From IMG/VR virus record IMGVR_UViG_3300028534_000001, positions 196,338 through 222,650 of that record: DNA of 26,313 bases. One strand, given 5' to 3'. Below, piece by piece: positions 7,088 through 24,256 of the stretch. The position numbers and the translations under genes are program-made. Below the pieces are notes generated by a model that searched no databases, was not told the origin of the DNA, and saw nothing but the letters and a program-made list of their open reading frames with translations. How positions within the stretch are numbered: position 1 is the first letter of the stretch; every line of letters begins with the position of its first letter. The DNA is from a virus. Lineage: Duplodnaviria > Heunggongvirae > Uroviricota > Caudoviricetes.

Positions 7088-7570
7088 TTATGAATTTTTT
7101 ACTTCTTCTAAAATATTTTTTAAAATATTTTTATTGAAATAACTTTCTGTAAATTCTACATTTTCTACATCAAAAAATTTTAAAATATCTTTTTTAATAT
7201 ATTTTTTAAAGTCTTTTGAAATGCTTACAAATTTATACACCATACCTACGCCTTGACTAATTTTACCATTTTGATATTTTAATGTTTTTGCTAATAAAGA
7301 TCTATCATTATGTGTTTCAAATTTTAAATTTTGTTTAGATATAAGAAAATCTATTAAAATAGTATTTTTATCAAAAATTGTATATTCAATCCATATAGGA
7401 CTTTTTATTTTAAAATTTTTATTATAATCTGATAAATATTTTTCTATTTCAAATTCACCTTTTGTTTCATATACAATTTTTTCCATATTTGGAGAACTGA
7501 AATCACCATCAACTTTTTTCCATTTTTTAATATTTATTGTTTTGTTTATTGCTTCTTTTAATAATTCCAT
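7088..7570 (-). CDS. hypothetical protein with LKEAI leader variant
   Basis: 160 aa; starts MELLKEAINK; TATTAAATA motif upstream. Confidence 0.75.
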   Translation of the reverse strand: MELLKEAINKTINIKKWKKVDGDFSSPNMEKIVYETKGEFEIEKYLSDYNKNFKIKSPIWIEYTIFDKNTILIDFLISKQNLKFETHNDRSLLAKTLKYQNGKISQGVGMVYKFVSISKDFKKYIKKDILKFFDVENVEFTESYFNKNILKNILEEVKNS

Positions 7571-7576
7571 AAATAT

Positions 7577-7596
7577 CCTTTTTGAATTATTTAATA
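7577..7596 (-). promoter_or_regulatory. putative late promoter plus RBS
   Basis: TATTAAATA-ATTCAAAAAGG. Confidence 0.45.
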
Positions 7597-7598
7597 AA

Positions 7599-7736
7599 TT
7601 ATATATTATTTACTAATTCTTTTAACTCTTTAATAATATCTTTAACATCATCATAAGATATATCAACACCATCTTCTTCAACAATTTTATTGATGTATAT
7701 ATGCATATCACTTAAATAGTCTAATAATTCAATCAT
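7599..7736 (-). CDS. small acidic hypothetical protein (not in ORF track)
   Basis: 45 aa MIELLDYLSDMHIYINKIVEEDGVDISYDDVKDIIKELKELVNNI; weak RBS. Confidence 0.5.
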   Translation of the reverse strand: MIELLDYLSDMHIYINKIVEEDGVDISYDDVKDIIKELKELVNNI

Positions 7737-7755
7737 CCATAATATTTTTTTTTAG

Positions 7756-8448
7756 TTATAACATTTCCTTTATATCAGATAAAGTTAAAATTTTTTCTTT
7801 TCCTGTATGATAAAATTTCCATTCAACTTTATTTATAACTTCTTTATATACATTTTTAAAATCATCTAAACACATATGAACACTGTTATATGAATTTTGA
7901 TGTAAATTTAAATCGTGATAAACAATTAAATTTTTATCTTTATTTTGTTTAATTTTTTCTAAAATTGAATATGATGCTTTTGCATCTCCACTTATAATAA
8001 TATTATTCTTTTTTAGATATAAACCATAACAATTAAATTGTCCGTGATTTACTTCAAATGTTTCTATATAATCATTTTCTTTAGCTTCAATAAAAATACA
8101 ATATTCATCTATTTTAATAATTTCACCATTAACATATATACTATTAAATTTATCTTTAAAAATAATTTTTAATTCTTCTAAAACTTTCTTACCAGCTAAT
8201 ACATAAGTTTTTAAATTATGTACAAAAAAATTGTAATATACTAATCTTTCCAAATCTGCAATATGATCAAAATGAGTATGAGTAATAAATATTTGTTGGA
8301 TTTTTTTATCTTTTACTTGTTCAAAAATACCATTACCACAATCTATTAAAAATAATCCATTTGATAAAGGTTCAATCAAAAAATCAACTTCTATTAAAAA
8401 TGAACTAGATACTTTATCAAATGCTCCTCCATTACCTAAAATTTCCAT
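7756..8448 (-). CDS. metallo-beta-lactamase-fold hydrolase, Apyc1-like (candidate anti-Pycsar cNMP phosphodiesterase)
   Basis: LGNGGAF, LIDCG, ITHTHFDHI, LExxxYYNFFV, NH, SGD, YHD, VHMCLDD, final H; motif order matches Apyc1 as I recall it. Confidence 0.8.
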   Translation of the reverse strand: MEILGNGGAFDKVSSSFLIEVDFLIEPLSNGLFLIDCGNGIFEQVKDKKIQQIFITHTHFDHIADLERLVYYNFFVHNLKTYVLAGKKVLEELKIIFKDKFNSIYVNGEIIKIDEYCIFIEAKENDYIETFEVNHGQFNCYGLYLKKNNIIISGDAKASYSILEKIKQNKDKNLIVYHDLNLHQNSYNSVHMCLDDFKNVYKEVINKVEWKFYHTGKEKILTLSDIKEML

Positions 8449-8479
8449 ATTAACTCCTAATACAATAAAATTTTATATT

Positions 8480-8737
8480 TTATTTTATTGTACTTGATTT
8501 TGAAATTTTAAAAATTATACCATCTGTTTCTAAATTTTTAAGTAAAAAATGAATAACTTCAACTGTATTTTTAAAAATTTTGTCTGGAGAATGATATTGA
8601 ACTTCACCAGCATTTTTAATGAATGAAACAATAATTTTTTCATTTTTAATTTCATCTTCTACTTTAATTTTACAATATTTTCCATCTTTATTCCAAAATT
8701 TATAATAACCATTTGTTTTATTATATTTCATATTCAT
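8480..8737 (-). CDS. hypothetical protein
   Basis: 85 aa, AAGGAG RBS. Confidence 0.7.
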   Translation of the reverse strand: MNMKYNKTNGYYKFWNKDGKYCKIKVEDEIKNEKIIVSFIKNAGEVQYHSPDKIFKNTVEVIHFLLKNLETDGIIFKISKSSTIK

Positions 8738-8756
8738 TTATTCTCCTTTTTATAAA

Positions 8757-9311
8757 TTATAAATATTTTTTTAAATTATCATAATAATTATGAATTTCTT
8801 TTGGTGTCATTTTTTCAAATTCTTTTTTATTATTATCTTTTAAAGCTTGTCTTACTTTAGTTGCACTTATATCATCATCACTTCTAGGGACTTCAATAAT
8901 TTCAACTTTTTTATTTTCTAAATAATCTAACATTCTTTGATAAGCTTTTACTCTATCACTTCCACATAGTAAATAAAATTCATTTTCTGGTAATTTTTCA
9001 ATTTCATCTACAAAATACCCTGAAGGAATTTCAATAACTTCAATTTTAGGGGCTACTTTTTGAATCATTTCCTTTTGTAATTCAAAATCAAAAGGATTTT
9101 TATCTTTATCTTTTGATGATTTTTTTCCTTTAACAATAAATATATATGCTTTATTAAATTTTTTTAATTCATCTATCATTTTCATATGACCTAAAGTTAA
9201 AGGTTGAAATCTACCTATTGTAAAAGCAGCTTTTGAATAATCAATTGAATCTTTGCCTAAAACTAAAGTTTCTAATGTTCCTACTAATTCTTCTATAATT
9301 TCTTTTAACAT
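8757..9311 (-). CDS. HIGH-family (cytidyltransferase/NMNAT-like) nucleotidyltransferase with MLKEII leader
   Basis: IGRFQPLTLGH, GSDR, ISATKVR motifs. Confidence 0.85.
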   Translation of the reverse strand: MLKEIIEELVGTLETLVLGKDSIDYSKAAFTIGRFQPLTLGHMKMIDELKKFNKAYIFIVKGKKSSKDKDKNPFDFELQKEMIQKVAPKIEVIEIPSGYFVDEIEKLPENEFYLLCGSDRVKAYQRMLDYLENKKVEIIEVPRSDDDISATKVRQALKDNNKKEFEKMTPKEIHNYYDNLKKYL

Positions 9312-22675: not shown

Positions 22676-22694
22676 GAAAAAATCTTAACATTTT
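22666..22694 (-). terminator. 12-bp stem-loop overlapping -35 position and upstream stop codon
   Basis: AAAATGTTAAGA-5 nt-TCTTAACATTTT. Confidence 0.55.
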
Positions 22695-23047
22695 ATTTTA
22701 TCTAAATTACCTAATAAAATAGATACTGGATTTTTTCCTTCTAATTTTAAACCTTCTTTTTCTAATTCTTCTTTTAATAAATTTTGAAGAGCAAATTGAT
22801 CATCATTTGTTTTTAAATTACAAATTTCTTTTTTAAATTTTTCAAAAATAGATTTTACTTTTTCTTTATCACATTCAGCTTTTTTACCTGTTCCATCATA
22901 TTTTTCATTACAAATAATTTCAAATTCATTTATTGAAGAATTTATAGCATAAATAATAGCATATTTTTTTCCTAAATTAACTTTTCCTATAGGAGTACCT
23001 TTTAATGAATTTTCATTAACAATATTTTCTAAAATTTCTTTTAACAT
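22685..23047 (-). CDS. hypothetical protein with MLKEIL leader
   Basis: 120 aa, starts MLKEILENIVNENS. Confidence 0.75.
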   Translation of the reverse strand: MLKEILENIVNENSLKGTPIGKVNLGKKYAIIYAINSSINEFEIICNEKYDGTGKKAECDKEKVKSIFEKFKKEICNLKTNDDQFALQNLLKEELEKEGLKLEGKNPVSILLGNLDKIKC

Positions 23048-23064
23048 TTTTATCCTTTAATATA

Positions 23065-23157
23065 TTATTTTTTATTAAATATTTTTTTAAAAAATTGCTT
23101 TACTTTTAAAAATTGTTTTTTTAAAAAATTATCTTCATAAACTTCTAAAATTTTCAA
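23065..23157 (-). CDS. possible 30-aa peptide (not in ORF track)
   Basis: TTG start behind AAGGA: (M)KILEVYEDNFLKKQFLKVKQFFKKIFNKK. Confidence 0.3.
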   Translation of the reverse strand: MKILEVYEDNFLKKQFLKVKQFFKKIFNKK

Positions 23158-23169
23158 TATTATTCCTTT

Positions 23170-23595
23170 TTAATTTATTACTTTTATTTTATATTTAGCA
23201 TTTAATTTATTTTTTATTTCTTCTAAACTTTTAAAAGGTTGAATATCTTTTGGTATTCCTAAAGATTTTAAATTTTTATATTCTAATGTTTTTTCAATTT
23301 TTTCTTTATATTCTTTTTTCATATTATTAGGAATAGGTTTTTCTATTTTTAATTTTCCTATAACTCTTAGAAAAAATTTTTCTTTACCTTCTTGCATATA
23401 TTTAGGCAAAATATCTTCTATTTTTAATGAAGGAATTTCATTTAAAACTTCTTGAATAAATTCTTCTTGTTTATATCTAAAAGTTTTTTCAATAGCTTCT
23501 GATATATTAGGTATTGATAAATCTAAATTATCCAATATTTCACTCATATATAAAATTTTTGATTTATCAATCTCAAATAAAGCTTCAATCTTCAT
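23170..23595 (-). CDS. hypothetical protein
   Basis: 141 aa, AAGGA RBS. Confidence 0.75.
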   Translation of the reverse strand: MKIEALFEIDKSKILYMSEILDNLDLSIPNISEAIEKTFRYKQEEFIQEVLNEIPSLKIEDILPKYMQEGKEKFFLRVIGKLKIEKPIPNNMKKEYKEKIEKTLEYKNLKSLGIPKDIQPFKSLEEIKNKLNAKYKIKVIN

Positions 23596-23797
23596 TTAAT
23601 ATTTCCTTAGTTATATTATTTATTTCTTTAAAAATTTTTTTAAATTTTTTAATATCTTTTTTTAAAATTTTATTATTTTTTTTCAATAATTTATTTTCGT
23701 TTTCTAATAATTTTATTTTTGAATCTAAATTTTGAAATTTTGAAGATAAAAATTCTCCTAATTCTTCAAAAATTTCGGGCATATTTTGAATAGTCAT
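23585..23797 (-). CDS. hypothetical coiled-coil protein
   Basis: 70 aa, coupled to upstream stop. Confidence 0.65.
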   Translation of the reverse strand: MTIQNMPEIFEELGEFLSSKFQNLDSKIKLLENENKLLKKNNKILKKDIKKFKKIFKEINNITKEILNED

Positions 23798-23982
23798 TAT
23801 ATAGCCTTTATATCTTTAATAAAAATATTTTTAGCATTTGGGAATAATTTTTTAATTTTTTGTTCACTTATTGAAAGTAATTCATTATTTTTAAATCTAT
23901 TTATTTTAAAAATAATATTTGTAATATTACTATCAATTTCAAAATTGACAATATATGATTTTTCTAAAAAAGGTATTCTCAT
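23797..23982 (-). CDS. hypothetical protein
   Basis: 61 aa, AAGGAG RBS. Confidence 0.7.
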   Translation of the reverse strand: MRIPFLEKSYIVNFEIDSNITNIIFKINRFKNNELLSISEQKIKKLFPNAKNIFIKDIKAI

Positions 23983-24013
23983 TTATTACTCCTTTTTTAT
24001 TTTAAATATACAA

Positions 24014-24256
24014 TTATTTACATATTTTTTCTAATTCTTTTATAACATCTTTATGTCTATCTTTTAAATTAGTTCCAGCTCTATTATAAAAATATACTAC
24101 TCTTTCTACGGCTTGTTTATAATTATCTGATTTTGAACATACAATTTTAGCTATTTCATTAGGAGATTTATCTTCACTAAAAGTTCCTTCAGGAAAAACA
24201 TTATGTTTTACATCTAATTTAGATAATTTTAATTCATTTAAAATATTTTTTAACAT
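24014..24256 (-). CDS. DUF3175-like small protein with MLKNIL leader
   Basis: G.F....P.EIA and YFYNRAGTNL resemble the DUF3175 FYINRAG.NL motif as I recall it. Confidence 0.5.
   Translation of the reverse strand: MLKNILNELKLSKLDVKHNVFPEGTFSEDKSPNEIAKIVCSKSDNYKQAVERVVYFYNRAGTNLKDRHKDVIKELEKICK

Follow-up and report, generated by a model that had tools for sequence, protein, structure and literature searches.

A shared N-terminal leader on unrelated proteins of an uncultivated phage of the T4 superfamily: a candidate capsid-targeting propeptide

Internal head proteins of phage T4 carry a short N-terminal peptide, the capsid-targeting sequence (CTS), reportedly described by Mullaney and Black. 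The CTS is a peptide of about 10 residues that precedes unrelated and fast-evolving proteins, i.e. IPI, IPII, IPIII and the Alt propeptide (PMC9026906, PMC3012670). It corresponds to the first 10 residues of IPIII, and the published specificity of the head protease gp21 is L/I-X-E (PMC9026906). According to the T4 record, IPII and IPIII start with MKTYQEFIAE, IPI with MKTFKEF, Alt with MELITELFDE, and gp67 and gp22 with MEGLIEAIKS and MLKEQLIAE, respectively. Here we describe a leader of similar length, MLKEI[IL] in its strictest form, which starts a series of unrelated proteins in an uncultivated vent phage. Seven of these are encoded in the stretch of DNA analysed here (the window, 26,313 nucleotides), which is the last 26.3 kb of a viral record of 222,650 bp with direct terminal repeats (IMGVR_UViG_3300028534_000001, G000 in the following). 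We consider it probable that the leader is a capsid-targeting propeptide specific to this lineage and acting in the manner of the T4 CTS, which would imply core binding, cleavage, packaging and injection of the proteins that carry it.

The comparison with T4 shows both likenesses and differences. In both phages the leader stands on unrelated, fast-evolving proteins, L/I-x-E, the cleavage motif of gp21, is found in or at the end of the leader, a gp21-family protease is encoded, and some of the genes appear to be late-controlled (T4 alt has the sequence TATAAATA just upstream). On the other hand, about 27 genes are tagged here, whereas T4 has about 4-5 such genes and Campylobacter phage CP220 has 4, the cargo includes enzymes (a member of the S-adenosylmethionine (SAM) lyase family and a nucleotidyltransferase), the protease is fused to a scaffold, and the system is known from sequence alone. 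A second point of comparison is the T4 prohead core. The N-terminus of gp22 (MLKEQLIAE/A, where the slash marks a known or putative cleavage site, here and below) has M-L-K-E-x-L in common with the leader, and the N-termini of gp22, gp67 and gp68 are, like the leader, amphipathic with an aliphatic-x-E site behind them; in this phage, however, the peptide is found on enzymes and on proteins of no known family and not on scaffold proteins. The large phages phiKZ, 201phi2-1 and SPN3US also have many head-internal proteins, among them head and ejection proteins with propeptides, that are cut after Glu by a diverged gp21 homolog, but the site of their gp175-type protease is S/A-X-E, i.e. P3 is small and not aliphatic, and these proteins have no common N-terminal sequence (PMC9026906, PMC5694885).

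The frequency of the leader was calculated for the whole proteome of G000. MLKEI[IL] starts 16 proteins as opposed to 0.06 expected from position-specific N-terminal residue frequencies, an approximately 250-fold excess, and it is noted that these frequencies already include the leader motif itself; the overall composition gives an expectation of only 0.006. Inside proteins, LKEI[IL] occurs once in the proteome versus 1.4 times expected by composition, in other words the motif is confined to N-termini. The leader, first noticed in the window in a preliminary description made from the sequence, is thus far above expectation genome-wide, and chance resulting from a K/E/I/L-rich composition is ruled out by the 16 observed versus 0.06 expected cases. 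A relaxed pattern, which takes in MLKDIL, MLKKIL and MLKNIL as well as the variants with extra residues MVLKEAI, MILKNII and MELLKEAI and one ORF that probably begins at an internal MLKEII, yields about 27 tagged genes (8% of the genes). Without their leaders the 27 proteins fall into 26 BLASTP families, and most of them have no match in Pfam or PHROG. The sequence logo of the leader reads M-L-K-E-I-[LI]-[EK]-[EN]-[LI]-K-N-E, the information fades past position 10-12, and the hydrophobic positions 2, 5, 6 and 9 correspond to a strongly amphipathic helix. Leader counts based on automatic gene calls are underestimates because the longest open reading frame (ORF) may overshoot the start: at G000 160932-161414 an internal MLKEII at residue 4 is the likely true start, and the same applies to an internal MLKKILEK at residue 22 of 82958-83692 in G002, one of two half-genome relatives (G001 and G002, 26% GC) that originate from one metagenome (3300026484 contigs).

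The seven tagged ORFs of the window are real, they are all on the minus strand, and their N-termini are as initially described. Four of them begin, as also reported there, with the identical DNA ATGTTAAAAGAAAT, and an AAAGGA-type ribosome-binding site precedes each; in the whole of G000 this 14-nt word is found 14 times on the coding strand and 0 times on the other strand. The gene at 24014-24256 encodes an 80-residue protein of no known family with the leader MLKNILNE/LK, in which L-N-E ends at residue 8, and is located in an insertion between flanks that adjoin in G001. The gene at 22685-23047 encodes a 120-residue protein with the N-terminus MLKEILENIVNE and the leader MLKEILE/NIVNE; it belongs to no known family and has no match in Pfam or PHROG. 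The gene at 7088-7570 encodes a 160-residue protein with a weaker variant of the leader, MELLKEAINK, which resembles the N-termini of T4 gp67 and Alt given above. The other four genes encode a SAM-lyase-family protein, a nucleotidyltransferase, and two proteins of 332 and 467 residues, all of which are discussed below. An MLKIPF start at 25816-26052 was taken as chance.

It is conspicuous that the leader has a potential head-protease site at a nearly fixed position: 83% of the tagged proteins have an [LI]-x-E whose last residue is number 7 or 8, versus 7% of the untagged ones. A gp21-like protease gene, for which the preliminary description had proposed a search, is present. A 676-residue protein (G000 102759-104789, L007:12759-14789) consists of an N-terminal gp21-family protease domain and a coiled-coil, scaffold-like tail of about 470 residues. 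The protease domain matches Pfam Peptidase_S77 (PF03420) with 43 bits, which is over the cut-off, as well as phrog_207, and an alignment with T4 gp21 shows that His85 and Ser140 of the latter are invariant in the protein of this phage. A potential site is seen in the major capsid protein (MCP) as well, i.e. V-T-E/N here and V-N-E/F in a 69%-identical relative align in the same columns as the L-T-E/A site of T4 gp23. The cut sites that were originally proposed (IKE, INE, VNE, IYE and LNE) are located downstream of the better-conserved I-[IL]-E7 or L-x-E8, and among them only the IKE16/S site of the SAM-lyase-family protein is independently supported (see below). The bodies of the tagged proteins do not have the [LI]xE excess of the proteome (observed/expected 0.97 vs 1.18, p=0.016), a weakly significant difference that we do not rely on. 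A complex prediction of the 676-residue fusion with the product of 22685-23047 gave a score of 0.00 with a partner pLDDT below 50, which we regard as evidence neither way.

The protease-scaffold gene is part of a head module at 97-109 kb of G000, which includes the large terminase, a probable portal, a 159-residue ORF, the 676-residue protein and the 469-residue MCP. G000 as a whole has a GC content of 20.6% and about 325 genes, about 307 of them on the minus strand. The closest cultured capsid relatives, 31-38% identical, are Rhizobium phages of the Kleczkowskaviridae as well as Vibrio and Ralstonia myoviruses, and the Rhizobium phages have the same head gene order and the same protease-scaffold fusion as G000. 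The phage is therefore, as judged by capsid identity and gene order, a deep branch of the T4 superfamily. In the Rhizobium phages the fusion is annotated as 'prohead core scaffolding and protease'. Directly downstream of the MCP gene of G000 there is a gene for a 569-residue homing/HNH endonuclease (99377-101086; phrog_3339, E=4.5e-107). No tagged genes were found in the structural loci of the MCP relatives, and 4.2 kb of the window gave no blastn match among cultured phages. The exact 21-nt leader pattern gave 61 single matches in IMG/VR, mostly in unrelated contigs, and relatives were found only among the 3300026484 contigs.

The most detailed view of the junction between leader and cargo comes from the SAM-lyase-family protein (17781-18422, minus strand, 213 residues). 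Its leader and linker read MLKEIIENVKKEVIKE/SNLSRIW, and the core of the fold begins at about residue 17. The protein matches Pfam PF23780 with 45 bits as compared to a cut-off of 28 bits, and the top Foldseek matches of the model are the T3 and Svi3-3 SAM lyases (8bb1, 6zm9; probability 0.98-0.99, E ~4e-3). The protein is thus a predicted member of the SAM-lyase family by profile and fold, and the label given to it in the first reading of the DNA holds at the family level. In the AlphaFold2 model (pTM 0.81) residues 2-16 have a pLDDT below 50 and the structure is confident from residue 17, i.e. past I-K-E16/S17. We analysed the same junction in the 115 of 120 listed homologs (P0001-P0120, metagenomic and phage proteins) that could be anchored on the core. 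Here [LIVFMY]-x-E is found before the core SSLSRIW in 96.5% of the proteins, P1 is Glu in 113 of 115, and the commonest leader length is 9-11 residues. Of the 115 leaders, 24 are similar to those of the T4 internal proteins (MKTFKSYINE/, MKFEEYINE/) and 9 are of the MLKEIL type. In this family, the alignment places both leader types at one position, exchanged at a conserved junction.

Another example is found in Campylobacter phage CP220, where the family member starts with MKFKDYIK and continues to FNE/SSLARLY, and where three adjacent, unrelated ORFs start with MKFIDYL, MTFKDYL and MTFKGYL. Starts of the type M[KT]F[KI][DG]Y[LI] occur only four times in the entire CP220 genome, and all four are neighbours (L096, record 112245-117815). 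We note that the whole PF23780 family may be propeptide-bearing and capsid-packaged in T4-like phages. A radical-SAM gene is located about 5 kb from these CP220 ORFs (record 122422-123342).

The rest of the cargo is only partly assignable. The first reading had presented the tagged set as mainly enzymes, but the cargo turns out to consist mostly of proteins without a recognisable family, and no support was found for a nuclease-like member. The HIGH-motif nucleotidyltransferase label was correct for 8757-9311 (minus strand, 184 residues): the leader MLKEIIE/EL is followed by a linker of about 20 residues and then by the GRFQPLTLGH motif, and the protein matches Pfam PF01467 and a cytidyltransferase in PHROG. 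The 332-residue protein (14071-15069, minus strand) has the leader MLKEIILKVKNINE. Its description as ligase-like stands as a fold-level lead, i.e. its structure neighbours have TM-scores of about 0.5 and suggest an RNA-ligase-like fold, but there is no KxDG motif. Some of these neighbours are phage proteins that combine a domain like this one with a CTP_transf_like nucleotidyltransferase in a single fusion (Atlas rows 4, 6 and 8); in this phage the RNA-ligase-like and nucleotidyltransferase domains are separate genes, each with a tag. The 467-residue protein (12664-14067, minus strand) has the N-terminus MVLKEAIKEIKNIYE with the variant leader MVLKEAIKE/IK, and its homologs in T4-like cyanophages are encoded beside a cytidylyltransferase/NMNAT gene.

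The cyanophage homologs provide a link to virion proteomes. Mass spectrometry of CsCl-purified virions of cyanophage S-SCSM1 detected ORF89-92, and the authors remark on the repeated occurrence of NMNAT-like proteins in the virion proteomes of cyanophages (PMC9602691). ORF90 matches the 467-residue tagged protein with E=3.5e-20, and ORF91 matches the tagged nucleotidyltransferase in BLASTP with E=1e-9, a match that is reciprocal and the only one ORF91 has in G000. Homologs of two tagged window proteins were thus detected in S-SCSM1 virions. Moreover, ORF91 starts with MKSFLQFLKE/A and the corresponding enzyme of phage S-SSM5 with MKKFSAFLTE/A, i.e. they have T4-type leaders that end in L-x-E/A. 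The leader sequence is different from that of G000, a low-complexity linker of some 100 residues is present in the cyanophage enzyme, and the authors drew no link to a targeting sequence (PMC9602691). In the T4-like cyanophages S-SCSM1, S-SSM5 and Syn1 (L097-L099) these genes form a three-gene module of 'T4-like GC533', GC71 and the cytidylyltransferase, and the N-terminus of GC71 has KWDG, a ligase-type motif. In a comparable way, the tagged RNA-ligase-like protein, the GC533 homolog and the nucleotidyltransferase lie in one neighbourhood of the window (8757-15069).

The tagged genes are also associated with a distinct class of promoter-type motif. A compact element, TTAAATA followed after 5-8 nt by AAAAGGA, recurs directly before genes for the MCP, the portal, the neck and the tail; including those before tagged genes, there are 50 such sites. 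By its sequence it is a candidate late promoter and resembles the T4 late promoter TATAAATA. There are 36 separate sites of a sigma-70-type TTGAC-N-TATAAT promoter, and only one gene has both types. TTAAATA at positions -18 to -33 is found before 52% of the tagged, 41% of the structural-region and 10% of the remaining genes (Fisher p=1e-6). Of the promoter-type motifs that lie closest upstream, 24 are late and 1 is early for tagged genes as compared to 136 late and 131 early for untagged genes (p=3e-6), and a tagged gene is present in 19 of 49 late units versus 1 of 35 sigma-70-type early units (p=7e-5). It had been stated that no tagged gene in the window is the first one after a TTGACT early promoter; this is borne out by the absence of a TTGAC-N-TATAAT promoter of their own from all tagged genes, and the explanation is that they follow late-type motifs. 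G000 also has a gene for a gp55-like late sigma factor at 43925-44794 (phrog_234, E=1.9e-8), a direct protein search with T4 gp55 being only marginal.

In the window, four TTAAATA motifs, all on the minus strand, precede tagged genes. The motif at 7588-7594 is directly before the tagged gene 7088-7570, whereas 24014, 17781, 14071 and 12664 are separated from such a motif by one or two other genes. The motif at 24495-24501 lies 29 nt before the ATG with which gene 24275-24472 begins, and the unit runs on into the tagged gene 24014-24256, the second of the unit. The motif at 19169-19175 precedes gene 18433-19149 and its unit runs on into the tagged SAM-lyase gene. The motif at 15324-15330 precedes gene 15063-15305, and this unit runs on into the tagged genes 14071-15069, second in line, and 12664-14067.

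The same observations have to be weighed for other explanations, and the one that survives best is that the leader is a late docking or sorting tag for another destination, such as the neck, the tail, the baseplate, decoration sites, an assembly factory or the membrane. The association with late-type promoters and the modularity described below would suit any late assembly tag, and the detection of homologs in virions is silent on where in the virion they reside. We nevertheless think this rather unlikely. A head-protease motif occupies a fixed position in the leader, the leader takes the place of T4 IP-type leaders in the SAM-lyase family and resembles the N-termini of T4 prohead-core proteins, and the cargo includes soluble enzymes that have neither adhesin nor structural features.

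The next question is whether the conserved entity is the peptide or the DNA that encodes it. The codon usage of G000 is extreme: TTA makes up 83% of Leu, AAA 97% of Lys and GAA 97% of Glu codons, and because of this bias, encoding MLKEI would give the identical leader DNA anyway. Three leaders start with TTG and not with ATG. MLKE is the commonest N-terminal word in G001 and G002 too, but there the leader is written with TTA, CTA or CTT, with AAA or AAG and with ATT or ATC (TTA being about 60% of Leu in these genomes). As codon bias accounts for the identical DNA and the relatives use synonymous codons, the constraint is, on this comparison of codons, on the leader peptide and not on the DNA.

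The relatives also show that the leader is modular. There are homolog pairs in which only one member is tagged, with the boundary at about residue 10. For example, G0_32626 reads MLKDILKEND and then DLSPLQKEY, whereas its G001 ortholog reads MAQE and then LSQLQKDY. The G001 homolog of the tagged nucleotidyltransferase has no leader and starts 22 residues later, right at the catalytic motif, and one G002 protein is tagged while its homolog in G000 is not. In the G001 ortholog of the SAM-lyase-family protein the leader is retained, written with a CTA codon, while the linker behind it shows an indel. A homolog in the relatives is found for 26% of the tagged versus 55% of the untagged genes. In other words, the tagged genes are hypervariable, which matches the description of the T4 internal proteins (PMC3012670).

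This variability, together with the location of tagged genes in insertions between conserved flanks and the co-occurrence, in many of them, of the upstream TTAAATA..AAAGGA element and the leader, could also be read in terms of a DNA-level 5' cassette of promoter, ribosome-binding site and first codons, which would spread by recombination upon gene capture and whose peptide would be functionless. We regard such a functionless cassette as very unlikely, given that the relatives keep the peptide through synonymous codons and that the start may be ATG or TTG. Moreover, variants with one or two extra residues retain LKE[AI]I, the amphipathic conservation reaches residues 9-10 via varied codons, an ortholog keeps the leader despite an indel in the linker, and structural genes have the upstream motif without the leader. 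Exchange of cassettes at the leader as such probably does occur.

It is also conceivable that the leader is recognised by some other enzyme or pathway, such as an enzyme of the kind that modifies ribosomally synthesised peptides (RiPP-like), a chaperone or a degradation machinery. Short N-terminal peptides can act as degrons, and the leader might be one. This we find highly improbable, as [LI]-x-E and the gp21-type protease already provide a known processing partner and no candidate partner enzyme co-varies with the tag. A recognition tag of the radical-SAM/SPASM type was ruled out, as neither PF04055 nor PF13186 was matched anywhere in the complete genome while control genomes were matched. 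Finally, an RNA operator or translation-initiation element, e.g. a RegA-type site over the AUG that co-regulates translation, would agree with the 14-nt word that is identical in 14 genes and with the binding of T4 RegA to AU-rich sites that include the start codon (T4 record annotation), but it has next to nothing to recommend it, since codon bias fully accounts for the DNA identity, the relatives have synonymous changes, the inserted-codon variants shift the register relative to the AUG, and no homolog of RegA (PF01818) was matched in the genome. A DNA-level repeat or operator was likewise rejected as the main cause on the grounds of the codon bias and the missing RegA match.

Several points weigh against the capsid-targeting propeptide as well. 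The leader is MLKEIL.E and not MKTYQEFIAE, so it lacks the likeness to the targeting sequence of the T4 internal proteins, and the match to gp22 spans about 9 residues, which is too short to establish homology and could be a coincidence. In this proteome, rich as it is in K, E, I and L, the motif [LI]xE is rather frequent and occurs in 7-10% of untagged N-termini by residue 8-10, and the Glu before SSLSRIW could be structural and not part of a cleavage site. The late promoter class is deduced from a motif and a weakly matching sigma factor, a search for a homolog of the T4 gp45 clamp found none, and only one of the seven tagged window genes has its own late motif, the rest depending on read-through from upstream genes. 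The authors of the S-SCSM1 study mention that carry-over of an abundant protein might explain the NMNAT signal (PMC9602691).

The preliminary description had proposed a phage-specific packaging leader that is cut by a gp21-like protease. This fits the computational tests that were run, i.e. the presence of the protease, the [LI]-x-E motif, the modularity, the late motifs and the virion homologs, while packaging, cleavage and injection are steps that we infer. The association with late-type promoter motifs, the swapping of leaders at a conserved junction, the likeness to gp22 and the virion-proteome homologs are new in the present analysis. The capsid-targeting propeptide would work in the following way. 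MLKEI[IL][EK]x[LI]K would be a short amphipathic N-terminal propeptide, this lineage's version of the T4 CTS. Late in infection it would attach about 27 unrelated proteins to the scaffolding core on which the prohead is assembled, the scaffold being fused here to the gp21-type protease. Once the shell is complete, the protease would cleave behind the Glu of the built-in I-[IL]-E7 or L-x-E8 site, and some proteins would receive a second cut at an [LIV]-x-E at the end of the linker, as in I-K-E16/S of the SAM-lyase protein. The mature proteins would thus be set free inside the head and would be ejected together with the DNA.

More speculatively, and somewhat less likely than not, about 8% of the proteome (the 27 or so tagged proteins, with the SAM-lyase-family enzyme, the nucleotidyltransferase and the RNA-ligase-like protein among them) might be packed and injected as a ready-made counter-defence and takeover kit. 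The address peptide might be derived from the N-terminus of the scaffold (cf. T4 gp22, MLKEQLIAE), so that the cargo would mimic the scaffold, and leaders might be an exchangeable 'postcode' of general use across the T4 superfamily, from which the injected proteome of uncultivated phages could be predicted.

If the leader is indeed a capsid-targeting propeptide, then the injected proteome of an uncultivated, deep-branching phage of the T4 superfamily would be readable from its sequence. The injected proteins would act before phage transcription, which would make them leading candidates for a role in anti-defence; a SAM lyase delivered ready-made could, for instance, counter SAM-dependent restriction and BREX. 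The recurrence of nucleotidyltransferases in cyanophage virion proteomes would be accounted for, and a new short tag would become available for loading foreign proteins into phage heads. In more general terms, the capsid-targeting principle of T4 would scale to dozens of cargos, and phage lineages would swap their leaders at a conserved cleavage junction.

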